Shown: positions 12,034 through 26,393 of the stretch, piece by piece
Layout of the letters: every line of letters begins with the position of its first letter
How positions within the stretch are numbered: the first letter of the stretch is position 1
From: an uncultured archaeon
Lineage (GTDB): Archaea; Asgardarchaeota; Heimdallarchaeia; Heimdallarchaeales; Heimdallarchaeaceae
DNA: 37,040 nt
Direction: 5' to 3'
NCBI GenBank assembly: GCA_964549075.1
Contig: CAZJUB010000009.1
Coordinates: 31,159-68,198, forward strand
Position numbers and translations under genes: made by a program
The notes under the pieces: generated by a model
Seen by the model: only the letters and a program-made list of their open reading frames with translations
The model's database searches: none
What the model was told of the DNA's origin: nothing

Positions 12034-14034
12034 TTATACTTCTTCTTCTTTACCTTTGTATTTTATTGTGGCAAAACCGCCAAGAATAACTAATCCTAAA
12101 GATACAATGAAAAGTATCATTGCTAAATAATCTATTGAAATTGGATTACCTACTGTAGGCTGAACGTAAATCTCATATAACTCCGTTTGGTTATAACCAT
12201 ATCCTCTTTTATGCATACGTATAGTAACATCGATAAAATCTGCTTTAATTGTATTTGCAGGAGTGATAGTTCCATTAAAGTGCCTATTATCTCCGGTGTT
12301 TACAAGATTTTCTTGGTTTCGATCAGCCTTAAGTTCGAGAATTACTACCCACACATGAAGGTTTTCAACTGTTGTATTATTATCACTATAAACTGTTATA
12401 TGAACATTGATAAAGCCACCTGCTAATATCTCTGTTTCTTCAACAACAAAGTCTTCATAAGATAGTAGATGTTGCAAGTTAAATAGCCATTGAACTTGAC
12501 TGATAAATAGATATTTATTATCTGCTTTAATAATGTTAGATGAATTAAAAATATCTGCAGATGCTGTAGCAATAAGTTTACCTCCTCTTTGTAACTCGAC
12601 TGCTGCTTGGAAAACTGCTGAGTCATTCAGGTTGTAATCTGCACTGCTGTTATACATTCTATCATCATCTAGATCAACGTAGAATTCACCTGTTTTGTTC
12701 AAAGTTGCATATAGGTCTCCTTGTTGAAATTGTATATACATCTCTCCAGAAGTACCATTATTTGTAAAATTTAAAGCTGATCCTTGGTAGAAGATTGAAG
12801 TAACATCTTGATTAGAAAGAATTGATGAATCCGTGAAGTATGGAATATCAGCTATATCTGCAGAATCCAGTGTTATTGTAGAATTAACACCTAAATCTTC
12901 AGAGAAAATTGTTGAATTAAATATTTGTAGACCGAAGTTTTCTAATAGTTTATTGATGGGTTTTGTATCTGCTGAAATCTCGCCTAAAATATACAAGCTA
13001 CCACCTGATGCAGTATAGAATCTGAGAGCTTCAACATCATTATCAGTTAGATCATTTAAGGCTCCAACTAAGATTATTAGGTCGTAACTATCAATTACAT
13101 TATATACAAATTCGTAACCATTTGACTCAAATTTTTCAGTTATATTAAATCCATAACTGTTTAGTATGTTATTAATTACTGAAAGATTATGTTCTAGAGA
13201 ATTTTGAGAATCAGAAATGTATGTGAGAACACTTTTTGCTGACAGATCTTCTTCATAAGAGAAATATTCGTATGTTGGATATAATCTAAAAGATTTCCAC
13301 TGACTGACTCTGTTATATAGTTCTGTATAATTATAATTTGCTGTGTTATTTTTAAAGAGAATAACCAGATAACTAATAGTATCTCCATCATTAAGTTCAA
13401 TATCTCTACCAGCAGTGTCTTTTGAATTCAATTCTTTAGCTATCTCAATAGATACTTCATATCTGTTAAAATCATCTAAATGTTTGTTTAAAGCAGCAAC
13501 TGAGTTTTCAACTCCTGTAGCGTTATTATCACCAATCATTGAGTTATAAGCTGTTCCGTTTATGAACATGTCTTGTCCTCCTAATTGTCTGTAATTAATA
13601 GCTACACAATCATCAGCAGTGATGTTAGAAGAGCCAATTAAAGCATCAAAACTGTTATCAAAAACTACAGCTAACCAAGTATGATTAACAGAATTGTAAT
13701 CTACATAGACAGCACTAGTATAACTTATGCCCATAAATAAATGGGTAGAATTTGCTTGAACACGTATTGTTACAGATATTTCATTTTGAGAAGGACCTAT
13801 AGAAACAGTTTGGACTGTAGCATTTTCCCATTCTCCTAAATAACTTTCTAAATTACCATCTATTATTGGTTCTGTATTGTTTAAAAACACAATATCCCCT
13901 TGAGGTGATATTTGAGAAATTTTCTTTTCATCTGAAATCATCGCTTTTGATGAAACACTGCTAAAACTTGAGAGTATTAGTCCTAGTATAATAGTTAAAA
14001 CTACAATTATTTTCTTAACATATCGTGTTCGCAC
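12034..14034 (-). CDS. Single-pass surface protein: signal peptide, DOMON/CBM9-like domain, GIFT domain, Ig-like domain, C-terminal TM (OST48/Wbp1-like)
   Basis: Hydrophobic N-terminus; IDGNL...GEWENA; YDLIILVG...DVEALRFYTASGGSLYILGE...INKLLENFG...GKLIATASADIF...DN..F....QWL; TM LAMILFIVSLGLVILGGFATI then KYKGKEEEV; many NxS/T sequons. Confidence 0.72.
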   Translation of the reverse strand: MRTRYVKKIIVVLTIILGLILSSFSSVSSKAMISDEKKISQISPQGDIVFLNNTEPIIDGNLESYLGEWENATVQTVSIGPSQNEISVTIRVQANSTHLFMGISYTSAVYVDYNSVNHTWLAVVFDNSFDALIGSSNITADDCVAINYRQLGGQDMFINGTAYNSMIGDNNATGVENSVAALNKHLDDFNRYEVSIEIAKELNSKDTAGRDIELNDGDTISYLVILFKNNTANYNYTELYNRVSQWKSFRLYPTYEYFSYEEDLSAKSVLTYISDSQNSLEHNLSVINNILNSYGFNITEKFESNGYEFVYNVIDSYDLIILVGALNDLTDNDVEALRFYTASGGSLYILGEISADTKPINKLLENFGLQIFNSTIFSEDLGVNSTITLDSADIADIPYFTDSSILSNQDVTSIFYQGSALNFTNNGTSGEMYIQFQQGDLYATLNKTGEFYVDLDDDRMYNSSADYNLNDSAVFQAAVELQRGGKLIATASADIFNSSNIIKADNKYLFISQVQWLFNLQHLLSYEDFVVEETEILAGGFINVHITVYSDNNTTVENLHVWVVILELKADRNQENLVNTGDNRHFNGTITPANTIKADFIDVTIRMHKRGYGYNQTELYEIYVQPTVGNPISIDYLAMILFIVSLGLVILGGFATIKYKGKEEEV

Positions 14035-14209
14035 TTGAGTCTACTCCATTGAGTTTATTAAAGGCCTAGCTTTTGCCTTTTTAAACTTTATTTCTTCAAA
14101 GAAGTTCAAGGCACTTATAATGCAACAGTAGCAAAATACTTATTTGAATATGGAAATACTGTATAATCGTAATCTAAATAATCTGTATCTGACTGATGGA
14201 GATAAGAAC

Positions 14210-15433
14210 ATGTCTGAGCTTAAGAATAAACTTCTAAAAGAAGAGTATAAAGATCAACCTGAAGTAAAAAAGTTACCAATTTTAGCGTTATTAGAAATTT
14301 CTGAAGATGAAGCAAAATTTTTGAAGGAAATTGGCTTAGAAACTATTGAAGGTCTTGCTACTGAGTGGAGTAATTATTATGATAAAATAGCAAAAAGAAT
14401 TCCAAAGGAAAGGATAAACAGCTGGATCGCTGCTAGCAGACTCCTATCACTTGAAGACACAAAAAAAGTTACTTCAGGAGCTAAAATCATCATGGTGGGA
14501 ATTGATAATGCTGGAAAAACTTCATTATCAATCGCTTTGAAACATCGTGGAGCATTATCTTTATTATTCCAAAAATTATATGCTTTAACTCCAACAAGAG
14601 GTTTACTCAGAAGCAAAATTGAGGTATTTGGATTAGATGTGCACATGCATGAACTTGGAGGACAAAGTATCTACCGAGAAGATTATTTGAACAATCCCCA
14701 ACAATATTTTATTGGAACTGATATTATTATTTTCGTTTTAGATGTGCAAGCAAAAGAAAGATTTGAAGAAAGTTTTGAATATTTGAAACAAATCACAAAC
14801 GTTACAAATTCATTAAAATTAAAAGTTCCTTGGAAGATATTTTTCCATAAATCAGATCCAGAATATGAAATTGATGATAAAAGTGCTGAAATATTTAGTT
14901 CGATTATTGACTACATGTCTAAAAACTGCCCCCATTTCAATCCTGCAAAAGATTTCTTTAGAACAAGTGTAAAAATTAGGTCATCAATTTTAGGTGCTTT
15001 TTCACATATTTTCAGGGAAATTTCTCTAATTCAAGATGGTGTTAAGAATGCATCTCAAAAAATAGCTGAAGAGCTAAATGCAGATTTCTTCGGATTATAT
15101 GACTTTAGAAGTAATGTGTGTTTTGCTCAATTCGCAAAAGAAGAAAATCTAACTGACGTATCACATAATGCATACTATGAAGCTATTGAAACTATAGTTA
15201 ATATGAGAGAACCATTTCTTAGAATTCGAAGATATACTCTTGAAAATGAAGTAAATGAAATTTTCATTTTAAGAGACCTGCGTTTTGGTGGAGATCGTTA
15301 CATTATGGCAATGTTAACGCAAGATGAAGAAATAGCAAGAAATCTTGATCAAGATGCTATTCAAGAAATCATTGATGAACAATTACAAGATTGGATAGAA
15401 TTCAGAGGATATGCAACGTTTCCACTTGAATAG
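14210..15433 (+). CDS. Rag/Gtr-like small GTPase with N-terminal HhH-like domain and C-terminal roadblock/longin-like domain (probable start ATG 14210; track start 14144)
   Basis: G1 GIDNAGKTS, G2 PTRG, G3 ELGGQ, G4 HKSD, G5 TSV; GGAGA upstream of ATG 14210. Confidence 0.85.
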   Translation: MSELKNKLLKEEYKDQPEVKKLPILALLEISEDEAKFLKEIGLETIEGLATEWSNYYDKIAKRIPKERINSWIAASRLLSLEDTKKVTSGAKIIMVGIDNAGKTSLSIALKHRGALSLLFQKLYALTPTRGLLRSKIEVFGLDVHMHELGGQSIYREDYLNNPQQYFIGTDIIIFVLDVQAKERFEESFEYLKQITNVTNSLKLKVPWKIFFHKSDPEYEIDDKSAEIFSSIIDYMSKNCPHFNPAKDFFRTSVKIRSSILGAFSHIFREISLIQDGVKNASQKIAEELNADFFGLYDFRSNVCFAQFAKEENLTDVSHNAYYEAIETIVNMREPFLRIRRYTLENEVNEIFILRDLRFGGDRYIMAMLTQDEEIARNLDQDAIQEIIDEQLQDWIEFRGYATFPLE

Positions 15434-15520: not shown

Positions 15521-15611
15521 GCTCCGATAGCTCAGCCCGGCTAGAGCGGTGATCTCGTAAAGTTATCGAGAAAGTCGCAGAACGGGGGTTCAAATCCCCC
15601 TCGGAGCTCCA
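15521..15611 (+). tRNA. tRNA-Thr(CGU) with a 13-nt intron at position 37/38 (15560-15572), CCA encoded
   Basis: Acceptor stem GCTCCGA/TCGGAGC, discriminator T, anticodon CGT at 15556-15558; intron AAGTTATCGAGAA forms a CTCG/CGAG central helix with 3-nt bulges; T arm GGGGG-TTCAAAT-CCCCC. Confidence 0.92.
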
Positions 15612-17161: not shown

Positions 17162-18187
17162 TTGAGTAGAATGAGAGCATATTTATCCAAAGCAATTCAA
17201 ATTAAAGGAAAAAATTGGAAAATAGCTTGTGATAGCACAAATTCTACTTATTACCCTCTAGTTTTCTACAGTCATGCTCACTCTGATCATATCCCTAGAC
17301 GTTTACCTAAAACTAATATAATAACTTCAAAAACAACACAAACACTTCTCCGAAATCTAACTTCTAATTATAGCGAACCAATTTACTATGAAGAGTATTC
17401 ACAAGAAGATCTTAAAATTACACAGAAATCTAGTGGACATATTATAGGTTCTACAGCTCTAAAAATTGATTCTTCAGAAGGAAAGCTAATTTATACAGGT
17501 GATGTTTCTATTAGAGACAAAGGATTCTTAGAACCGTTTAAACCTGAAAAGTGTGACATATTAATTATTGAAAGTACATTTGGTTCTCCTGATTATATTT
17601 TCCCAGAATACAGTCACATTATAAACGAAACAAGAGATCAAATTTTAAATTATCTTGAAAATGGCTTTCCCGTTGTTTTGATGGGTTATGCTTTAGGTAA
17701 GGCACAAATGTTGTATCATGCATTCTCAAAACTGTCTGAAACTATTATTATGCATGAAGCAAATTATAAAATCAACTCGCTTCTTTTGGAAAATGAGATT
17801 CACGGTTCTATCTCAGCTATTTCCTATAATGATGCAAAGGAAAGGGCGTTATTAGAAAAAGCAAATAATTGGATTCTTTATACACCTCTAAAATCAGGAA
17901 GGGACACCTTTTTCACTTATCTAAAAAAGAAGTATAATGTTAAAATTTTTGCTTTTAGTGGTTGGTGTATCTTTCCTAATTACAAGTTCAGGATGGCTAT
18001 AGATCATGGTGTAACCATAAGTGATCACGCTGATTTTCAAGAGCTGATTCAAATTTGTAAAATGTGTGATCCAAAGCAAATCTATACTATTTACGGAGAT
18101 AACATTAGATTTGCTGCAGAATTAAGAAAACTGGGATTCAATGCAACACCATTATCAAAACAAACTCTTCTGGAATCATTTTTTTAG
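17162..18187 (+). CDS. MBL-fold beta-CASP nuclease with C-terminal PIP box
   Basis: SHAHSDH, GHIIGS, YTGD, IESTFG, GYALGKAQ, SDHADF; ends QTLLESFF. Confidence 0.9.
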   Translation: MSRMRAYLSKAIQIKGKNWKIACDSTNSTYYPLVFYSHAHSDHIPRRLPKTNIITSKTTQTLLRNLTSNYSEPIYYEEYSQEDLKITQKSSGHIIGSTALKIDSSEGKLIYTGDVSIRDKGFLEPFKPEKCDILIIESTFGSPDYIFPEYSHIINETRDQILNYLENGFPVVLMGYALGKAQMLYHAFSKLSETIIMHEANYKINSLLLENEIHGSISAISYNDAKERALLEKANNWILYTPLKSGRDTFFTYLKKKYNVKIFAFSGWCIFPNYKFRMAIDHGVTISDHADFQELIQICKMCDPKQIYTIYGDNIRFAAELRKLGFNATPLSKQTLLESFF

Positions 18188-18189
18188 TT

Positions 18190-18558
18190 TTAGTAACATG
18201 TTATCAAATCTTCTATTTTCCTTTCTTTATAGATGATTTCATTTAAATGTACTATTTGAATAGGTATATCTCTACGAGCAAGAAAATCTCTTGCATTGGT
18301 ACTGATGGAATTGCAAATTAAAACCAACTTCTTTAAGTTCAAAGAATTAATAAGTTGCTCAAGTTGAAGGATTTTGTTTGTTGGAATTGTTCTTTTCCAG
18401 TTAATTGTAACAATTCCAATTTTTTGATTCTGTAGATAAAAATCTATCACATACTTCTGTCTTCCAAATCTAAAAGTGGCATTCTCTCTTATTGGAATAT
18501 TTCTTGTGTTAAATTCGTTTCTAAGTAAATAATTAATGACAGATTCTTCTGTGTTCAT
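18190..18558 (-). CDS. Restriction-endonuclease-like (PD-(D/E)xK/Mrr fold) small protein, probably inactive
   Basis: EESVINYL...G...YVIDFYL...WKRTIP...VLICNSIS..A pattern; the catalytic E-x-K glutamate is not seen. Confidence 0.55.
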   Translation of the reverse strand: MNTEESVINYLLRNEFNTRNIPIRENATFRFGRQKYVIDFYLQNQKIGIVTINWKRTIPTNKILQLEQLINSLNLKKLVLICNSISTNARDFLARRDIPIQIVHLNEIIYKERKIEDLITCY

Positions 18559-18700: not shown

Positions 18701-21244
18701 TTATCCAAAAATATATTTCATATCTTTTCTATTAGATAGTCTTGCGATTAAACGATCAAATAGAGAAATGTGCTTTTTTACAAGAGCTTTAGGAGTGTTA
18801 GAGAAAACATAAACATAATCAACTTTCTTTCTTTCGACTTGATTTTCTTTTGCCCTAATTTTATATGTTATTTTTTCATCATCTGCTTCTGTTAAAACAC
18901 ATGCTATCCCTGTTTCTAACTCTTCTTTAGTAAATAAGATTACAGATTTTCCAATTACAGTCTTGATTAGAGAAGTCTGTTGCTCAATTTTATCTTCCAA
19001 TAATCTTAATAAAACCGGAGGAAGCTCGAAAAATAATTCTGAACCTCTATAATCAAATGTTTTTTCACCACTTTTTCCGGTTACTTTCATTTGAAAAATT
19101 GAATTAGCAAATTTATTTTTGAATCCTATATCTTCCAAAATTGCTTTTCGATCTGCTCCATCTTTATAAATGAAGATTTCTTTTCCAATGTTTTTCACAA
19201 AATAGGTTTTTGGTCTTCCAGTATAATGCTTCTGAAAAGTTTCTGAAGAATTACTTAGCTTTTTGAATGTGAAAATTGGATTTTCTGATTTCTCTGAAGG
19301 TTTCCATGATACAAGTTCTCCCATTTTTCCATTTTTTAATATGTAGGTTTCTCCTATATCTGCTTCATGGATATCATAATCTGTATAAAGTATCTGTTTT
19401 TCATCTTGATTATGTTTAACATTAAGCAATAGTGGTGTACATATTTGATTGCTTATTGTGAGACCTGTTACCTTCCCTTCAACAATATTGTGGAAGGTAC
19501 GGTCATAAGCAACTATTTTTTTACCTTCAATTTCTGAAATTAATTCATCCATTCTGGTGATATCTATGAATTCTTTAACTCCATCTTTTCCATGATACTC
19601 ATCAAATCGTTCTGAAATCATAGAAGAAAATTCTTCTCGTTTTTCACTTAACTTCTTTAATGCTTTTTTTCTAATAAAACCAGGCAATATGAACCAAAAT
19701 GGAAGAAGTGCTCCTTTTACTGGTGAAACTCTTTCATCTATAACAGCAACGATTCTGTAAGCTGTTCTGGGATGAGACATGAAAATGTTTGCTATCATGT
19801 CCCATCTAGTTGGTCTGTATAAATGTTTGTAAAGTCTAATTGCAGCTTCACCTTGAAATCTCAATTTTTCATCTTCTGTGAATTCTTTGCCTGTTAAGAG
19901 TTGAACATTCAAACCAAAATCACCAGCCACACCTTGATAAAATCCTTCTAATTTGTACAATGCTTGAGCTAGTTCTTTTCCATATCCTGCCTTTTTAGTC
20001 TGTAAATCTGCATCCCCTTCTAAAACCCTAACAAATATGTATAAGACTGCGATAATTCCATAACTAATAAGAAAATACCATCCAAAAGGAATTTTTACTT
20101 TGATAGCAGCATAATCAAGTGTTGTGGCTGGAAGAAGGAATGCTTTCTTGATTATCATTTCAACCCACGCCAATAATTGTAACCAAATTATGTGAGCTCT
20201 TTTATTATGAGCTAACTCATGTGCTACAATACCTCGGATGTCCTCATCACTAAAATCATTGATGTCTGAAGCAATCAAAGCAACTCTCTGATCAAACAAT
20301 GGTCCATAAGCCATAGCATTTAAGATAGGTGCTTCAACAACCCCTACTTTGATTTTTCTCTTTATACCTAACTTCAATCTTACTTCTTCGATTAACTTCA
20401 AAATTCTTTCATCATCAGTAGGTTTGATACCTAATAATTTGGTTAATAACCAACCTGATATTAAATATACTAAAATAGAAACTACAATAATCATTTCCCA
20501 AGGTCCTATGGAAAGAAAAATCACTCTATCAACAAGCTGTGTCCTTGCAAAAAAACTGTTTGATCTAACAAGCCCTCCAAATGTGGAGTTATCTCGAGGA
20601 AGAGAAAAAGTACTGGAATCAAAGAAAGAAGAAAAAGTATAAGAATAAATTCCCAAGTAATTCCAAGTTAGATTATCAAATCCTGGTACTAGTCTACCGA
20701 CACCATATAGTACGACATAAACAATTGCAAAAAGGGTTAGATAAAGAATCTGAGGTGACATTAATCTGCTTACTAATACGAATTTCTTACCAAAGAAGAT
20801 TAATGCAAGAATGATAAAAACATAGAGCATAAGATTATAAGCCCAGCCTGTAAATATCTCGGTTTTCTCGTGTTTTACAAGTTCCCATATTTTATCTCCA
20901 ACTGTACCAACTAAAAATACAAAATATGTTACTAAAGATATAATCATGAGTTCTCTCCACACTGGAGAGTGCCTTAATTGGTATGTTTGGTAGATAGCTA
21001 GAACAAAAAGACTCAGTGCTATTCCCAATAGCCATTGTTCTAGAAAGAATAATACTAATCCAAAAGTAATCGCTATAGAGGACAACATTAGATTTTCAGA
21101 AGTTGTTCCGTGTTTAATTTTTGTTCTAATCTCTGATAAGAGAAAGAATAACCCTATCGCAGTTATCAATATTCCTAAAATTAAAGTAATATTACCGCCA
21201 ACAACTCGAGCCCACTTATCAGCAAAATAGTCCACCAAACTCAT
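18701..21244 (-). CDS. M48 (HtpX/Ste24) membrane zinc metalloprotease with extra N-terminal TM helices and a long C-terminal soluble region
   Basis: LNAMAYG, AHELAH (HExxH), EGDAD, ALYKL, SHP..RI; multiple TM helices. Confidence 0.9.
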   Translation of the reverse strand: MSLVDYFADKWARVVGGNITLILGILITAIGLFFLLSEIRTKIKHGTTSENLMLSSIAITFGLVLFFLEQWLLGIALSLFVLAIYQTYQLRHSPVWRELMIISLVTYFVFLVGTVGDKIWELVKHEKTEIFTGWAYNLMLYVFIILALIFFGKKFVLVSRLMSPQILYLTLFAIVYVVLYGVGRLVPGFDNLTWNYLGIYSYTFSSFFDSSTFSLPRDNSTFGGLVRSNSFFARTQLVDRVIFLSIGPWEMIIVVSILVYLISGWLLTKLLGIKPTDDERILKLIEEVRLKLGIKRKIKVGVVEAPILNAMAYGPLFDQRVALIASDINDFSDEDIRGIVAHELAHNKRAHIIWLQLLAWVEMIIKKAFLLPATTLDYAAIKVKIPFGWYFLISYGIIAVLYIFVRVLEGDADLQTKKAGYGKELAQALYKLEGFYQGVAGDFGLNVQLLTGKEFTEDEKLRFQGEAAIRLYKHLYRPTRWDMIANIFMSHPRTAYRIVAVIDERVSPVKGALLPFWFILPGFIRKKALKKLSEKREEFSSMISERFDEYHGKDGVKEFIDITRMDELISEIEGKKIVAYDRTFHNIVEGKVTGLTISNQICTPLLLNVKHNQDEKQILYTDYDIHEADIGETYILKNGKMGELVSWKPSEKSENPIFTFKKLSNSSETFQKHYTGRPKTYFVKNIGKEIFIYKDGADRKAILEDIGFKNKFANSIFQMKVTGKSGEKTFDYRGSELFFELPPVLLRLLEDKIEQQTSLIKTVIGKSVILFTKEELETGIACVLTEADDEKITYKIRAKENQVERKKVDYVYVFSNTPKALVKKHISLFDRLIARLSNRKDMKYIFG

Positions 21245-21297
21245 TTCATCATGGGTGTGATGATGAGTGTTTTAAAATCTTTGTCTTTGAAAGAATT

Positions 21298-21924
21298 TCA
21301 AGATACGGGAATTTGACGTATCACATCGTTATTGAGTAGATCCTTTGTCGCTAATTGAGCATCTGTTTCAGTGAGTTTCATTAATTTAACAATATCATTA
21401 AGAGTAGCAGTTCCTTTGTATTTCAGTAAGGATATTACCTTTTTCTGTTGCCTACTATAGGATCTGTTGATATCTTGTGTTATGATTTTTGGATTTAATT
21501 CAAGCTTAGTGCTAGCTAGATTTTCTACGGGCATTGTATACTTCTTTAAATACCTATCAATATACTCCTCCATCATAGAGAAATGTTCTACTCTCCCATT
21601 CCAATCCTTTAGTTCTTCAGAATAACGGTTTTGGAATTCTTCTTGGATTTTCTTCAAGTCTGATCTAATTCGATTATCTTCTTCATTACAATCTGTACAA
21701 ACTACTGTTACTAGTTGATTAGATGTGGCATAGATGAACTTGAAATTTTTAGTTTGAAGAAAATCACATCCTTCGTCAACATTCTGTGCAAAAATTTCGA
21801 TTGCGCTTAAGAAACTGGTTATCAGATTCTCATCATGGTCTATGCTTCCATACTTTTTGTGATAAAGACATTCACCTGTATCTTTAGCTATCCAGATATT
21901 ATGTAACATAGACTTCAAGAACAT
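21298..21924 (-). CDS. Longin-domain protein fused to a C-terminal winged helix
   Basis: IWIAKDTGECLY...DENLITSFLSAIEIFA...LKKIQEEFQNRY...WNG is the Asgard longin pattern; QKKVISLLKYKGTATLNDIVKLM...LLNNDVIR is wHTH-like. Confidence 0.8.
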   Translation of the reverse strand: MFLKSMLHNIWIAKDTGECLYHKKYGSIDHDENLITSFLSAIEIFAQNVDEGCDFLQTKNFKFIYATSNQLVTVVCTDCNEEDNRIRSDLKKIQEEFQNRYSEELKDWNGRVEHFSMMEEYIDRYLKKYTMPVENLASTKLELNPKIITQDINRSYSRQQKKVISLLKYKGTATLNDIVKLMKLTETDAQLATKDLLNNDVIRQIPVS

Positions 21925-22044
21925 AAAATAAACTCAGCACAAAAAGTCTCATAATACATGGATATTTTCACATTCACACTTTTAGTGAAAATTTAACAAT
22001 AATTTCAAAAGAAAAATGAAATAAAAATAAGGAAAAAAAGTAGT

Positions 22045-22701
22045 TTATGCTTTGTAAGGCATAACCTCTAAAACTATGTTTTCATCCGATAATTCAGCAT
22101 CTCGAGCAGCTTTTCGAATTGCTTCTTTTGCAATCTCAACCATTTGCTCAGTTGTTAAATCCTCGTTGTATGTTTCTTTCAAATGTGCTATAGCTTCAGA
22201 ATCTCCTTCACCCATTGCTTTCGCTTTGCAAGACATTACTCCACCACCAGGATCAACAAAATGAAGGCTTGGGCCTGTTTGATCTATTCCACCATATAAT
22301 AATCCAACTCCAAATGGTCGAAGACCACCTTGTTGAGTGAACATTTGAATGTAATCTCCTATCTTAATTGATAGTCCTCTAACATCTATTGGATCGGCGT
22401 AAGTTAACTTGAAGATTTCTGCTTCTAGTCTAGAACGCGAGATAAGAATTCTTCCATCTGCAGCAACACCAGCAAAAATAGCTTGAATGTTCTCTGAAAT
22501 TTTGTGAATCTTTAAATCAGGTTCATTTAAATCTACGATTCTGAGTAATCCTGCAAGTACTACTCCATGGTTACTTTTTATTCCTATTGCTATACTTCCT
22601 CTTCTGACTGATTCTCTTGCATATTCAGTTTGAATGATACGTCCTTCAGGTGAGTACATAGTTGTTGTTCTGTCATATCCCATTGATTGTGGTCCTAACA
22701 T
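22045..22701 (-). CDS. psmA: 20S proteasome alpha subunit (divergent, short)
   Basis: GYDRTTTMYSPEGRIIQTEYA, AGVAADGR, TQQGGLRPFGV, VDPGG. Confidence 0.95.
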   Translation of the reverse strand: MLGPQSMGYDRTTTMYSPEGRIIQTEYARESVRRGSIAIGIKSNHGVVLAGLLRIVDLNEPDLKIHKISENIQAIFAGVAADGRILISRSRLEAEIFKLTYADPIDVRGLSIKIGDYIQMFTQQGGLRPFGVGLLYGGIDQTGPSLHFVDPGGGVMSCKAKAMGEGDSEAIAHLKETYNEDLTTEQMVEIAKEAIRKAARDAELSDENIVLEVMPYKA

Positions 22702-22705
22702 TTTC

Positions 22706-23368
22706 TTATGCCTCCAAGTATTTCTTTACTTCTTCTGAAGTCAATCTTTTGACTCCTTTTTTATTGACTATTACAACATCCATTCCGTCTCCAGTAGCAG
22801 CATCTCTGCTAATAGCAGTAGCTAAAGCTAATATAGCTATTTTCAAGCCTTCTTCTTCAGTTAAATCTTCTTTCCATTGGGATTCCAAAACACCATATGC
22901 AACAGGCGAACCTGATCCAGTTGATGCAAAATCCTCATCTGATATACCTCCAGCCATATCAAGTGTATAGACGTGAGGTCCATCTTTATCTAAACCAGCA
23001 ACAATCATTTGAACCCAATAAGGGAAGTAGGATCTATATTGTTCATACATTATAGAAGCAAGTAAATTTCCTGCCATTTTTGTTGAAGGCGAGTATCCTC
23101 TTCCTAGTTCATAGAGATTCAGATTAGCTCTTGTTAAATTAACAAGATATTGAGCATCTGAAACCATTCCAGCAATTGTAGCAACTGTAAAATTGTTGAG
23201 TTCATGTAACTTATCTGCTTTTTTAGATGCAACAAAAGTACCCATTGAAGCTCTTTTGTCAGCTGCTGCTGCAATTCCTCCTTTGAATCTTAGTGCAATG
23301 GTAGTTGTACCATGCTTTGGTTCCATATATGAGTTGTTTGCCATCCCATTAAAGTTTGGATTGTTCAT
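22706..23368 (-). CDS. psmB: 20S proteasome beta subunit with 20-aa propeptide
   Basis: HG|TTTIAL autocleavage site, ADKRAS, AGMVSDAQ, STGSGS, RDAATGDG. Confidence 0.96.
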   Translation of the reverse strand: MNNPNFNGMANNSYMEPKHGTTTIALRFKGGIAAAADKRASMGTFVASKKADKLHELNNFTVATIAGMVSDAQYLVNLTRANLNLYELGRGYSPSTKMAGNLLASIMYEQYRSYFPYWVQMIVAGLDKDGPHVYTLDMAGGISDEDFASTGSGSPVAYGVLESQWKEDLTEEEGLKIAILALATAISRDAATGDGMDVVIVNKKGVKRLTSEEVKKYLEA

Positions 23369-23430
23369 AACATTACCTCAATTTTTTTAGTTTTCTTTCG
23401 CTTAAATATTTAGTGTTTTCACTGTTTATA

Positions 23431-24162
23431 TTAATTATAAGTTATTTCATCAGTGTGAGTTATTATCTTGTCTTCATAAACGTCTAAACTCACATTGTCT
23501 AATTCTATTAATTCACCACTCACCCAATTCACGACCATATTAATACTTGAACTTGACGGATGATTCTCCTGATATTCAATATCGATTATACCATCTTTAT
23601 GAATATTTAAATGAACGCGATTTTTATCTAAATCCTCCCAACATAGCTGAATATAGCTCTTAGTTTGCTTTTTATAGATAAAACGAAAATTACCAAACCA
23701 CCTTTTTTCAAGAATTGAACTAATGATATCTTGTTCTAATGGTGGTATTGTGTGTAACCTTTTCCATTTAGAACTATAGTTGTTATTTTGTATATCAATG
23801 GCTTTAACATTTAGTAAATCTCGTATCAAAGATTTGGTATATCTGCTTCCGGAATTGGTAAGTTCATATGATCCCAAATCGTTTTTTGAGAGGTACTTAC
23901 GATCTTGTAGTCTTTTGAGTGCTTTTGTTAGTTGATGTTGGTGAAGTTCAGTAGTCTTTCTTAAACCTGAAAAACTATAAGCTACGTTAGAATCCGATAA
24001 TGTGAGAAGTAATTGAACCTCAGGTAGAGTCATGTATTCATACTCTAAACTATAGAAGTAATCATCTGGTAAATTATCTAATTTCAAACTTTTATCTTCT
24101 TGCTTGAAGCTTGATAAATCATAATACCCTTGGTCCATATTCATAATATTATCAATATACAA
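23431..24162 (-). CDS. Winged-helix (MarR-like) putative regulator with C-terminal alpha/beta domain
   Basis: EVQLLLTL...SFSGLRKTTELHQHQLTKALKRLQDRKYL...YELTNSG; the start may be a downstream Met. Confidence 0.75.
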   Translation of the reverse strand: MYIDNIMNMDQGYYDLSSFKQEDKSLKLDNLPDDYFYSLEYEYMTLPEVQLLLTLSDSNVAYSFSGLRKTTELHQHQLTKALKRLQDRKYLSKNDLGSYELTNSGSRYTKSLIRDLLNVKAIDIQNNNYSSKWKRLHTIPPLEQDIISSILEKRWFGNFRFIYKKQTKSYIQLCWEDLDKNRVHLNIHKDGIIDIEYQENHPSSSSINMVVNWVSGELIELDNVSLDVYEDKIITHTDEITYN

Positions 24163-24207
24163 TACTGCTTATCAGTATATAATGACTTGGTTTTATACGA
24201 ATATTGT

Positions 24208-25965
24208 TTAATTGTTGTTTGTTTCCTCGCCTGAATTATTTTCAGATTCCTCAGTTGAATCTTGTGTTGTTGATACAGAAGTTGGATGTAAATACACTTC
24301 CCCTTCTAAAATAGTATAAGGTATTCGACGTTCATCAATCCAAGGAGCTTCTTCTCGGAACTCTTTAAACATATCATTTGAAATTATCATAGCATTTTCT
24401 TCATCAGCAAGTCGTAAAATGAATTTATCTCCATCTACTCGTGCGGGTAGCATCTTAATTGCTCCTTCTTTTACTAACTGATCTAATCTCTTCTGTTCAT
24501 CAATTTGGTATCTAAGAGCAGCATCAGCTACAGTAATTATTTTCTTGAAATTCGCTCTACTTAGTCTGTTTATCATTGCTTCAATATTGGCTATCTTAGG
24601 TTTATTAGCGGAATTTTTTTCTTCCCAAGCGATATTAGAGCCATCCAGAATTGCTGTTTCAAATGGGTAGTTTAATTCTGGAAAAATTCTGTCTCTATTA
24701 AGTTGTGCTTTTGTAGCTAGACCAAGGAAAATATCCCTTGAAAAATAAGCTAATCCCAAGAGTAAAGTTGTAAAAACAATTCCAAAAGCAATTTGAGATG
24801 TAAGGGTTGGATTAGTTACTGGTTCTGATGAAAGAACTATTACTTCTTGAAATCTAGTTAATAATAAAGTTGTATACCAATTAGTTCCAGAGAGAGTTGT
24901 CCATTCTAGATCAATTGAGAAAAATAGAGCTACAATCCCTGTGTTTACCGGATCCCCTGATAAAATCAAGAAGTTTTTTCCATTAATAACCCTGACAGAG
25001 GTTTCGATATCATTAAACATGATATTTTCACACTCTACCCTAGGTTGAACATAGAGTGATACACCTTCACTATTTGTAATTTCATAATCTATTAAATATT
25101 CTTCACCCATGGTCACGTTTATTGGAAGATACCAATTATCAACTGTTATATAAGGCTCGACTATAATCTCTAGTGTATCACTTTCTGTAACTCTTTCAGT
25201 ATCTGGATCATCAATAGATCGGTAAGTCAAAGTAAAGGTGTGCTTCTGATATAAAGAAGTGTCTGGATAAAATCCAATAGTATCTGAAAACGTTTTACCA
25301 CTCTCAATTTCTAAATTGTAGACAGAAACTGATCGTGTAATGGATCCAGTTGTTCCTGTTTTATGGATTTCATTTGTTACTGTAACGTTAGTTACTGTCG
25401 TTCCTCCTGTATTGGATATAACGAATTGAACATCATTAGTTTGATCCCTTGTAAGATAAACTGTTCTTAGTGGAAAATACATTCTTACTATTCCAAATGG
25501 TAGAACTACCAATTCAAATGTTTTAAAAGTGGAATACATTTTGGAGGTCGTACTATTAGCAAAAGCATTAACACTATAATTGCCAGCATCTTGACCATTG
25601 AATGTAGACCATGGAACAGTGTGATTGACATATCCTGTAGCTGTCTCATTCAGTAATATTGAGTTATCATAAATCATTTCATGACTAGGATTTGTAATAT
25701 TTAGTCGTATATATGAATCAGGGATGTAGGATTCATTTTCATAGGTATATTGAAATAAAACAATAAGATCATCTTCTCCCCTTGTTAAAACAGATGAATT
25801 TAATCCCATGACAAAAGTAGCATTTTCAAGAAGATTTAAACTAGGAAATTGAGAACTAATATTAGAAGGATTTCTGGCCTCAATTATGGAATTTGTAGGA
25901 TTAACCACTAGTGTAAAGAACATGAATCCTACAACTAATAAGTAGACCTTTGACCTCCTATACAT
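24208..25965 (-). CDS. Single-pass membrane protein: signal peptide, Ig-like/CARDB-like ectodomain, TM helix, cytoplasmic Zc3h12a (Regnase)/NYN ribonuclease domain
   Basis: N-terminal hydrophobic signal; beta-rich, sequon-rich region (VISNTGGTTVTNVTV); TM IAFGIVFTTLLLGLAYF; AILDGSNIAW, VADAALRY, PARVDGDKFILRLA, IISNDMFKEF. Confidence 0.88.
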   Translation of the reverse strand: MYRRSKVYLLVVGFMFFTLVVNPTNSIIEARNPSNISSQFPSLNLLENATFVMGLNSSVLTRGEDDLIVLFQYTYENESYIPDSYIRLNITNPSHEMIYDNSILLNETATGYVNHTVPWSTFNGQDAGNYSVNAFANSTTSKMYSTFKTFELVVLPFGIVRMYFPLRTVYLTRDQTNDVQFVISNTGGTTVTNVTVTNEIHKTGTTGSITRSVSVYNLEIESGKTFSDTIGFYPDTSLYQKHTFTLTYRSIDDPDTERVTESDTLEIIVEPYITVDNWYLPINVTMGEEYLIDYEITNSEGVSLYVQPRVECENIMFNDIETSVRVINGKNFLILSGDPVNTGIVALFFSIDLEWTTLSGTNWYTTLLLTRFQEVIVLSSEPVTNPTLTSQIAFGIVFTTLLLGLAYFSRDIFLGLATKAQLNRDRIFPELNYPFETAILDGSNIAWEEKNSANKPKIANIEAMINRLSRANFKKIITVADAALRYQIDEQKRLDQLVKEGAIKMLPARVDGDKFILRLADEENAMIISNDMFKEFREEAPWIDERRIPYTILEGEVYLHPTSVSTTQDSTEESENNSGEETNNN

Positions 25966-26062
25966 AATTACACTTCTATTTTATTATTTAACTAATATTT
26001 TTTTTAGGTTTAATAAGTTTAACGTGAGTAAACGTTTTTTTACATGAAAAAATGAAAAATGT

Positions 26063-26393
26063 TGAACGATGCGAAAATACCCCTGATTCTGTTGGGAAGC
26101 CGTCAAGGACCTTCCGGGCAACATTCGTCTAAGCACTTTACCCAGTTCATGAGAACTCTACTTAAGCTTGCTCCTCGATGATTGACCGTTTCAACGTTTC
26201 CTATATTCTCCTCAGCAAGTTATCTCTAAAGATGTTACCATTTTATTCATCGCATCATTGTCTCCGAATATAGGCCGTGCCGTTTCTGTTCCAAGAGCCA
26301 TGTTCTCACATGGTGGATTTGCATCCACATCGATTTTGATGGAGTCAGGAGGTTCCTCAGCAAATGCCGATAGTTGCCATTTCGCTTCGTTCA
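26063..26393 (-). ncRNA. rnpB: RNase P RNA (archaeal)
   Basis: Minus strand: P1 UGAACGAAGCGAAA/UUUCGCAUCGUUCA; CR-I GAGGAACCUCCUGA pairs with CR-V AACAGAAUCAGGGGUA (P4 with bulged U); ACAGAAA, UGAAAC, GAGCAAG and GCUUAG..GAAUG elements in the expected order. Confidence 0.93.

Follow-up and report, generated by a model that had tools for sequence, protein, structure and literature searches.

A winged-helix gene and a conserved putative promoter box associated with the 20S proteasome genes of Heimdallarchaeia: a candidate proteasome regulon

The locus and its features

The locus described here lies in a 37,040-nucleotide (nt) stretch of DNA, hereafter the window, from an uncultured archaeon of the family Heimdallarchaeaceae (class Heimdallarchaeia of the Asgard archaea; contig CAZJUB010000009.1 of assembly GCA_964549075.1). 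Six consecutive minus-strand open reading frames (ORFs), separated by gaps of 45, 62, 4, 120 and 53 nt, encode a membrane-anchored RNase with a NYN domain (NYN585), a winged helix-turn-helix (wHTH) protein (wHTH243), the beta and alpha subunits of the 20S proteasome (psmB and psmA, together psmBA), a longin-like protein and an M48 metalloprotease (Table 1). Homologs in the public protein collection are labeled Candidatus Heimdallarchaeaceae or Heimdallarchaeota. An earlier reading of the sequence, the original prediction, had proposed these genes as a candidate proteostasis module resembling the eukaryotic unfolded protein response (UPR). Its description of six co-oriented genes with these gaps agrees exactly with the ORF list, and the run does lie directly downstream of rnpB, the archaeal RNase P RNA gene, which stands 101 nt upstream of the first gene on the same strand and has T-tracts after its 3' end in the sequence as read. 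The actual co-oriented run nevertheless comprises nine features, namely orf122, the six genes, rnpB and a gene for a BioF/Kbl-type acyltransferase, so that a boundary drawn around six of them is arbitrary. As shown below, the old conserved unit at this locus is wHTH243-psmB-psmA and not the six genes, and it is accompanied by a short conserved box, AGTCATT followed by a TATA-like run, which may serve as a promoter or operator element.

Table 1. Features of the locus, in window coordinates
Feature	Position	Strand	Basis
rnpB, archaeal RNase P RNA	26067..26389	-	Rfam RF00373, 157.4 bits
NYN585, NYN RNase (585 aa)	24208..25965	-	PF11977
Putative promoter box AGTCATTATATA, AGTCATT then TATA-like run	24176..24187	-	footprint alignment
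wHTH243 (243 aa)	23431..24162, likely true start 24144	-	MarR-type winged helix in model
Second A/T-rich TATA-like element CACTAAATATTTAAGC, just 5' of psmB	23398..23416	-	kept in g1 alignment of psmB upstream regions
psmB, 20S proteasome beta (220 aa)	22706..23368	-	PF00227
psmA, 20S proteasome alpha (218 aa), 4 nt after psmB	22045..22701	-	PF00227 and PF10584
T-tract run right after psmA stop	21990..22044	-	sequence read
Longin-like protein (208 aa)	21298..21924	-	sub-threshold Pfam longin-fold matches
Polytopic M48 metalloprotease (847 aa)	18701..21244	-	PF01435
orf122, constant downstream partner of M48 gene	18190..18558	-	tblastn beside M48
MBL341, beta-CASP-type metallo-beta-lactamase nuclease	17162..18187	+	CPSF-type PDB matches 5.9e-10

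The T-tracts that follow psmA resemble an archaeal terminator and may end a transcript there, and the second TATA-like element, just 5' of psmB, is a possible internal promoter.

The six-gene order and a recent inversion

The locus was fetched from 18 relatives of the same family, many of the loci being cut by contig ends (genomes, loci, genera and families are designated below by G, L, g and f numbers). The uninterrupted, co-oriented run of six genes was found in the window, G020 and G023 only, and the six-gene order is thus not kept beyond very close relatives. In a fourth genome, G001, the orientation is the same, but a gene for a 529-aa right-handed beta-helix (NosD-like) protein on the opposite strand (L033:5072-6661 +) lies between the longin gene and psmA. 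The other 15 family genomes, nine of the same genus and six from four other genera, share a different arrangement in which psmA is directly followed on the same strand by MBL341, with orf122 and the M48 gene convergent on the other strand. The window differs from one of these genomes, G006, by a single inversion of the segment containing the longin gene, the M48 gene, orf122 and MBL341, which has carried MBL341 away from psmA in the window. The longin gene adjoins the M48 gene in only seven genomes and lies 17-29 kb from psmB in nine other family genomes, while orf122 adjoins the M48 gene, as located by tblastn, in every fetched family locus that holds the 3' end of the latter. From the comparison of gene orders, the six-gene run looks like the outcome of a recent four-gene inversion in the ancestor of the window and its three close relatives.

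These observations bear directly on the idea that all six genes form one envelope-stress module akin to the UPR and to endoplasmic-reticulum-associated degradation (ERAD), in which the RNase would act as the stress sensor, the DNA-binding proteins as responders, and the M48 protease together with the 20S core as the degrading machinery. Such a module would be in keeping with the co-orientation and short gaps in the window, G020 and G023, with the receptor-like topology of the NYN protein, and with the M48 gene never being more than a few kb from psmBA in the family loci that include it. Against this, co-orientation is limited to 4 of the 19 family genomes, one of the four being interrupted, and in the remaining 15 the M48 gene is convergent behind the beta-CASP gene; the longin gene is usually distant; T-tracts follow psmA; no kinase or KEN domain was found in the RNase (see below); and, apart from a longin-like gene in G034, the psmBA and NYN loci fetched from other families yielded no homologs of the M48 and longin genes. 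We consider a six-gene module highly improbable. The six genes are better described as several transcription units of different ages than as one module, and the UPR-like appearance of the run is largely the product of the recent inversion.

Linkage of wHTH243 to psmB and psmA

The proteasome genes themselves are unambiguous. The psmB product matches PF00227 (1.2e-53) and has a propeptide that ends at an HG-TTTIAL junction before the catalytic Thr, whereas the psmA product matches PF00227 (5.1e-44) and carries the alpha N-terminal signature PF10584 (1.4e-9; 37.8 bits vs. a cut-off of 27.7). Both also match the corresponding archaeal NCBIfam models, TIGR03634 for psmB (1.5e-60) and the alpha model for psmA (1.5e-64), at scores slightly below the equivalog cut-offs. 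They are the sole PF00227 beta/alpha pair in a genome that is 89.7% complete, and the original prediction was right in seeing a complete 20S core here.

In 13 of the 18 family relatives, NYN, wHTH, psmB and psmA follow one another without interruption on one strand. Among the remaining five, the wHTH gene is inverted in place in two g13 genomes, a contig end falls inside it in two others, and one g11 genome is split, with rnpB-NYN-wHTH on a 3.1-kb contig of their own and psmBA elsewhere, behind a PIG-L gene. Across the order, almost all genomes in which a search recovered both genes have psmA and psmB as co-oriented neighbors.

The association extends well beyond the family. A profile search recovered the wHTH243 ortholog as a single-copy gene in 68 of 71 genomes of the class, and in four of the seven families it stands beside psmB or 3.5-5 kb upstream; the compared genomes are related draws from their groups, and these counts are not independent of one another. 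In f1 and f2 the wHTH gene stays with psmBA but is placed in four ways, as the head of the operon, as a separate unit upstream, in divergent orientation or as the tail of the operon; in f2 it comes after psmA, with NYN divergent from psmB. All 12 f6 genomes have the wHTH gene immediately upstream of psmB and co-oriented with it (four loci inspected). In f5, a family of another order, 18 of the 20 genomes with both genes have it 3.5-5.2 kb upstream of psmB, again co-oriented, and the order on one strand is hsp20, the wHTH243 ortholog, a gene for a 987-aa class I aminoacyl-tRNA synthetase, psmB and psmA (L186-L189, e.g. L186:3396-9611). The f5 wHTH gene is in this way flanked by two proteostasis loci. 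In f3, f4 and f7 the ortholog is unlinked to psmB, and a scan of the f3 and f4 loci of NYN and psmBA with the wHTH243 hidden Markov model gave no match. Since the link persists in f5 and f6, where no full-length NYN protein was found, it is older than the NYN gene.

The original prediction had pointed to the psmB upstream region as a possible target of the wHTH protein. This part of it is strengthened by the class-wide gene linkage and by the conserved box upstream of the operon. The NYN gene is tied to wHTH and psmBA in two families and more loosely in a third, and the tie was not seen in the other orders searched.

The AGTCATT box

In the window, AGTCATTATATA lies approximately 20 nt after the NYN stop codon and approximately 30 nt upstream of the likely wHTH243 start (M7), where alignment of the upstream regions gives the block AAC-N-N-AGTCATTATA(A/T)AG. 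All 29 loci of the order have AGTCATT: in the 13 loci from genera g1 and g10 it precedes wHTH, and in the 16 loci from the remaining genera and families it precedes psmB. Conversely, none of 14 g1 and g10 loci has it in the 300 nt that precede psmB, a position at which another conserved TATA-like element occurs instead. The base rate of AGTCATT in 150-nt upstream windows of the genome is 40 in 2534, or 1.6%. Outside the order, AGTCA with an A/T-rich run precedes psmB in 20 of 20 loci from three further families, ten of which have the full AGTCATT.

The exact 12-mer AGTCATTATAWA has a second copy in the genome (contig C80, 8162-8173), which extends from 45 to 33 nt upstream of the start of a gene for a PAC2-type proteasome-assembly chaperone (PF09754, 4.9e-33; TIGR00161, 3.5e-25). 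The exact box accompanies the PAC2 ortholog in 11 congeneric genomes, while in 12 of 12 further g1 and g10 genomes the form AGTCATTAA(A/T)A(A/G), with one or two mismatches, occupies the same place; similar boxes precede PAC2 in two f3 genomes. A common cis-element is consequently found upstream of multiple proteasome-related genes, wHTH-psmBA and PAC2. The wHTH gene, too, has a box of its own upstream in two of four f6 loci, and likewise in an f7 genome in which it is unlinked to psmB.

Searches beyond these positions were less informative. The extended pattern AACNNAGTCATTA gave three matches, two of which lie inside coding regions, and a one-mismatch scan with the 12-mer (78 matches vs. 147 for the reversed control) was uninformative. 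Among 20 other exact 12-mer matches from relatives, 11 had no ORF of at least 60 aa starting within 200 nt downstream; the ORFs downstream of the other nine, the products of which are unannotated, included none that was recurrent or proteasome-related in appearance.

Some psmB promoters contain a second box core. Direct repeats of the form CAGTCA-N5-CAGTCA occur in genus g3 (L061, L062), and inverted repeats are seen as AATGACT-T-AGTCATT in L066 and AATGACT-N8-AGTCATT in L041. Repeated cores of this kind would suit a dimeric binder.

wHTH243 as a candidate proteasome regulator

The orthologous alignment and an Atlas record that begins at residue 7 both indicate M7 as the likely start of wHTH243. 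In a predicted model (pLDDT, the predicted local distance difference test score, 78.8) the protein consists of a MarR-type winged helix at approximately residues 40-120 and a C-terminal alpha/beta domain at approximately 124-242. VIA-align superimposed the model (approximately residues 21-123) on MarR regulators with Z of 12.0-12.6 and a root-mean-square deviation of 1.5-4.4 Å over 81-95 residues, whereas the C-terminal domain (128-238) is not MarR-like and resembles the N-terminal domain of spermine synthase (Z 11.3). An Atlas search retrieved archaeal MarR/HTH_5 clusters. Sequence profiles were less decisive: every Pfam match of wHTH243 was below its cut-off (MarR_2, 16.6 bits vs. 27), with no match to a WYL domain, and an f2 ortholog reached 28.6 bits, just above the MarR_2 cut-off. 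A Foldseek search with the whole protein gave no clear match, the best being a Roco COR domain (3.4e-4, TM-score 0.31), and a profile search of PDB returned matches at E>=0.075 only. Of the two DNA-binding candidates named in the original prediction, wHTH243 is supported by the MarR-type fold of the model; the C-terminal wHTH attributed to the 208-aa protein is unconfirmed.

We hypothesize that wHTH243 is a dedicated regulator of the 20S proteasome genes that acts at the box, a role for which we see slightly less than an even chance. It is suggested by the linkage to psmBA through at least four arrangements, by the presence of the box at the wHTH gene itself in some lineages, and by the fold. 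The earlier suggestion that this protein may bind upstream of psmB now has a concrete candidate target site.

Several observations weigh against this assignment. The wHTH gene is unlinked to psmB in f3, f4 and g11, and the box was found upstream of none of the 14 unlinked orthologs in these groups, while psmB keeps its box there. Pfam does not place wHTH243 in the MarR family above cut-off. In f5 the box is looser, AGTCA(T/A)(A/T)ATAT, with AGTCA alone constant, and such a 5-mer can arise by chance. PAC2 loci without the box were found in genera g11, g12 and g13 and in G036, G040 and G027, none of eight PAC2-family loci in five f5 and f6 genomes has it, and there is no box upstream of PAN. Nor is the box enriched genome-wide, with two exact copies in the 3.2-Mb genome vs. 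eight for the reversed control and eight matches at promoter positions vs. ten for the control, so that its significance comes from position and conservation. Finally, kinship among the compared genomes means that the counts overstate the independent support.

Because f3 and f4 psmB retain the box while the wHTH gene is unlinked and lacks it, another factor could read the box, for example a TFB/TBP paralog or an unlinked regulator, with wHTH243 regulating other genes or being a proteasome-associated protein. The 0 of 14 count favors this explanation, as does the location of the box directly upstream of a TATA-like run, where the TFB recognition element (BRE) normally sits; in f5, moreover, the wHTH gene lies beside hsp20, which could be its target. 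It accounts less well for an ortholog that 68 of 71 class genomes keep as a single copy and that is linked to psmB in four families through varied arrangements, and for the box that precedes wHTH itself in the f6 and f7 examples. We regard a different reader of the box as possible but on balance doubtful.

Cumulatively, we favor a layered origin of the locus. Its oldest, class-wide layer would be a psmB-psmA operon behind an AGTCATT box directly upstream of a TATA-like run, with the wHTH243 gene nearby. In the genus of the window wHTH243 sits between the box and psmB and is therefore probably the first gene of the proteasome operon, co-transcribed with psmBA. It may act at the box and, in this lineage, may also control the PAC2 gene that has the same box. 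To this unit the NYN RNase would have been added within the order, the family keeping the trio rnpB-NYN-wHTH and the block rnpB-NYN-wHTH-psmB-psmA-(beta-CASP), and the longin-like and M48-orf122 genes would have become co-oriented neighbors only through the four-gene inversion. We place high confidence in the structural and evolutionary parts of this account taken by themselves; for the picture as a whole, including the regulator, we consider the chances about even.

To our knowledge, how archaea set their proteasome levels is essentially unknown, and a literature search conducted mostly at the level of abstracts found no publication that deals with the gene cluster, with the box or with a regulator specific to the proteasome in Asgard archaea. 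The class-wide link of a winged-helix gene to the 20S operon, together with a box shared with an assembly chaperone, provides a directly testable candidate for a dedicated proteasome regulon in Heimdallarchaeia, which are among the closest archaeal relatives of eukaryotes.

The NYN RNase

NYN585 matches PF11977, the Zc3h12a-type NYN domain, over residues 437-558 (5.3e-17; 62.4 bits vs. a cut-off of 23), with its orthologs scoring 51-68 bits. Profile searches of PDB matched ZC3H12C (8.9e-8), and the matches to ZC3H12C and ZC3H12B, KHNYN and ZC3H12A span 8.9e-8 to 1.9e-4. Residues D441, N444, D481, D513, N530 and D531 are invariant across 24 orthologs, and the acidic residues align with the ZC3H12C motifs DGSNVA, D-RFI and SND, giving the pattern DxxN ... 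D ... D ... SND; these acidic residues are taken to be metal-binding, as in Regnase. The protein has hydrophobic segments at residues 7-25 and 388-410, and its AlphaFold model (mean pLDDT 83) shows an N-terminal helix, three beta-sandwich domains (approximately 46-378), a transmembrane (TM) helix at 388-410 and a cytoplasmic NYN domain. Of the N-x-S/T sequons, 11 are in the ectodomain vs. 1 inside. Taken together, the ectodomain, TM helix and NYN domain make "receptor-like membrane RNase" an apt designation.

The ectodomain is poorly conserved, with 22-27% identity between families. Searched with Foldseek as a whole, it matched generic tandem Ig/MG-like arrays (pilins, complement, S-layer proteins), and Ire1 was not among the matches listed. 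PF11977 was the sole Pfam match of NYN585 at E<=0.01, with no kinase or KEN/ribonuclease 2-5A domain; because these domains were not found, there is no sign of homology to Ire1. Pfam likewise gave no match to a CCCH zinc finger or KH domain, and the protein ends approximately 25 residues past the NYN domain. Separately, the ortholog profile of ectodomain residues 177-260 weakly matches the translocon-associated protein subunit beta (TRAP-beta; E 0.011).

Approximately 32 cluster representatives retrieved at E<=1e-30 mostly share the length and layout of NYN585. The full-length protein is present in 30 of 34 relatives in the order of the window and was found in 0 of 22 genomes of f5, 0 of 12 of f6 and 0 of 2 of f7. 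Two conserved elements precede the NYN gene in genera g1 and g10, namely GTTAAACTTATTAAAC, approximately 55 nt upstream of the NYN start (window 25990-26040, minus strand), and ATAGAAGTG, just 5' of the NYN ATG; these are probably the gene's own promoter and ribosome-binding region, respectively. The NYN RNase is therefore best viewed as an order-specific addition with its own promoter-like element. A role in defense was set aside, as PADLOC gave no match and the gene is single-copy at a locus that is stable across an order, and a toxin-antitoxin pairing of NYN with wHTH was set aside on grounds of size, vertical inheritance and gene order.

Could the receptor RNase nonetheless form a smaller signaling module with wHTH243 and the 20S genes, in which RNA cleavage or membrane sequestration of the wHTH protein tunes proteasome expression? 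The three genes rnpB, NYN and wHTH stay together in the five family genera examined, even in g11 where they are apart from psmBA; rnpB directly precedes NYN in all five. In f2, NYN and psmB are divergent neighbors whose common intergenic region holds the box. In three f3 genomes, too, NYN shares a contig with psmBA or with the threonyl-tRNA synthetase (ThrRS) gene, which follows psmA in other f3 genomes: NYN is approximately 4 kb from psmA in G040 and approximately 12 kb from psmB in G034, and in G035 ThrRS alone is visible, at the start of the contig. Speaking against such a module, full-length NYN is confined to the order, and wHTH-psmBA and the box persist without it; all 11 f3 and f4 genomes in which both NYN and wHTH were found carry them on separate contigs; NYN has its own promoter-like element; and unrelated PIG-L, acyltransferase and beta-CASP genes occupy the same block, so that some of the linkage is simply inherited gene order. 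We judge this smaller module decidedly unlikely.

The neighbors of the NYN gene allow a different explanation, in which the enzyme acts in tRNA or RNA metabolism, as another case of archaeal RNA nucleases encoded beside proteasome genes and outside any regulatory circuit. Besides rnpB, they include an AlaX-type tRNA-editing gene, the convergent neighbor of NYN in four genomes of two families (f2 and f3), and ThrRS. The f3 pattern is psmB-psmA-ThrRS-(gene for a protein of approximately 605 aa with a weak N-terminal PIN-like match)-NYN-AlaX, which G040 shows in full and G035 and G034 in part (L048:5951-14130; L052:229-7170; L045:5265-11432), with NYN located elsewhere in four other f3 genomes; in 15 family genomes, furthermore, a beta-CASP nuclease gene comes after psmA. 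With rnpB, AlaX and ThrRS as neighbors, a role in RNA or tRNA metabolism is no less plausible than one in proteostasis. NYN neighborhoods have been described as pointing to tRNA/rRNA processing in a passage of PMC5499597, and precedents for the pairing of nuclease and proteasome genes are the archaeal aCPSF1-psmB gene pair and the exosome-proteasome superoperon (Koonin et al. 2001, as cited in a passage of PMC3095777). A membrane anchor and an ectodomain of three domains that, judging from the model and its sequons, would be glycosylated are nevertheless unexpected in a tRNA-processing enzyme, the aCPSF1 ortholog is on another contig, and neighborhood evidence of such kind is weak. A role in RNA metabolism outside any circuit hence appears unlikely.

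The most elaborate possibility combines the favored assignment of wHTH243 with the RNase: an autoregulated wHTH243 would read the box at the 20S operon, and at PAC2 in the order, and would be wired to the cell surface through the NYN RNase, which under envelope stress would cleave the wHTH-psmBA message or hold wHTH243 at the membrane. This we offer as a long shot. Were it true, the system would be a prokaryotic forerunner, in logic and not by homology, of Ire1/HAC1 and of the Nrf1 proteasome bounce-back.

Comparison with known systems

Dedicated proteasome regulons are known from eukaryotes, namely Rpn4/PACE in yeast and Nrf1 (NFE2L1) in mammals, and are central to eukaryotic proteostasis. 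The candidate regulon resembles them in that one short element stands at the promoters of 20S subunit and assembly genes, here psmBA and PAC2, with a candidate dedicated DNA-binding protein, and wHTH243 might be regarded as their prokaryote-style counterpart. It differs in that wHTH243 is a MarR-type winged helix with no sequence relation to either factor, that the candidate regulon is tiny, with two promoters in this genome and PAN excluded, and that the gene of the predicted factor lies inside or beside the operon.

In the actinobacterial proteasome cluster, prcB-prcA is accompanied by the genes of the winged-helix regulators pafB and pafC nearby. That cluster is alike in having beta before alpha in an operon and a winged-helix gene in the same cluster; unlike it, the window shows no Pup, Dop or PafA genes, wHTH243 has no WYL match, and the lineage is archaeal. 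With the aCPSF1-psmB pair and the exosome superoperon the locus shares RNA nuclease genes (NYN, the beta-CASP paralog and rnpB) beside proteasome genes. Here, however, the aCPSF1 ortholog (TIGR03675, 902.8 bits) is on contig C27 and psmB on C9, the two protein nucleases are NYN585, anchored in the membrane, and the short beta-CASP protein MBL341, and no exosome family was matched among the window ORFs scanned, psmA not being with exosome genes in the window.

The eukaryotic UPR pathway Ire1-HAC1/XBP1, on which the original prediction was modeled, is similar in topology only, with an ectodomain, one TM helix, a cytoplasmic RNase and a transcription-factor gene nearby. The RNase of NYN585 is NYN/PIN-like and not KEN, there is no kinase, and the ectodomain consists of three beta-sandwich domains, so that the resemblance, which concerns layout, is an analogy and not homology. 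Closer relatives are the Zc3h12a-type NYN RNases (Regnase-1/MCPIP1, ZC3H12B-D, KHNYN and N4BP1), with which NYN585 shares PF11977 above cut-off, matches to the ZC3H12C, ZC3H12B and KHNYN structures at 8.9e-8 to 6.9e-6 and conserved acidic residues; unlike these, it has no CCCH zinc finger or KH match and is membrane-anchored with an extracellular domain.

Other genes of the window

The 208-aa protein, the longin-wHTH protein of the original prediction, has a weak longin likeness in its N-terminal half: Pfam matches are all below threshold (Fuz_longin_1, 20.2 bits vs. 26.1; Longin, 18.5 vs. 26.2; Clat_adaptor_s, 16.7 vs. 22.5; E 7.5e-4 to 7.5e-3), PDB matches are weak and are to AP sigma (E 0.17-0.48), and Atlas returned unnamed Asgard clusters only. 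The 847-aa protein is a polytopic M48 metalloprotease (PF01435, 2.2e-12, 47.6 bits vs. a cut-off of 20.3) with the HExxH motif as HELAH at residue 342 and approximately 7-8 hydrophobic segments, followed by a further, uncharacterized C-terminal region of approximately 330 aa. The designation HtpX/Ste24-type is accurate as far as a membrane M48 protease is concerned, but the protein is not an HtpX ortholog, its best score against the HtpX equivalogs being 26.6 bits vs. a cut-off of 275. Its partner orf122 has no Pfam match. MBL341 matches TIGR04122 (2.5e-42, below cut-off) and is most like the ligase-associated exonucleases.

Four further features lie outside the run. A tRNA gene at 15521-15611 (+), of 88-91 nt, scored 49.9 bits with Rfam and was assigned by ARAGORN to an undetermined type with the four-letter anticodon cgta; it may hold an intron or an unusual anticodon loop. 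A 429-aa protein encoded at 14144-15433 (+) matches Gtr1/RagA (3.7e-18) and Arf (1.6e-16) and appears to be an Asgard-type, eukaryote-like small GTPase, and the neighboring 666-aa protein (12034-14034, -) has a weak match to the GIFT domain of IFT52 (1.8e-6). Near the beginning of the window, a 125-aa protein (825-1202, -) matches the origin-associated protein OapC (1.3e-10), and a replication origin might be close to the window start.

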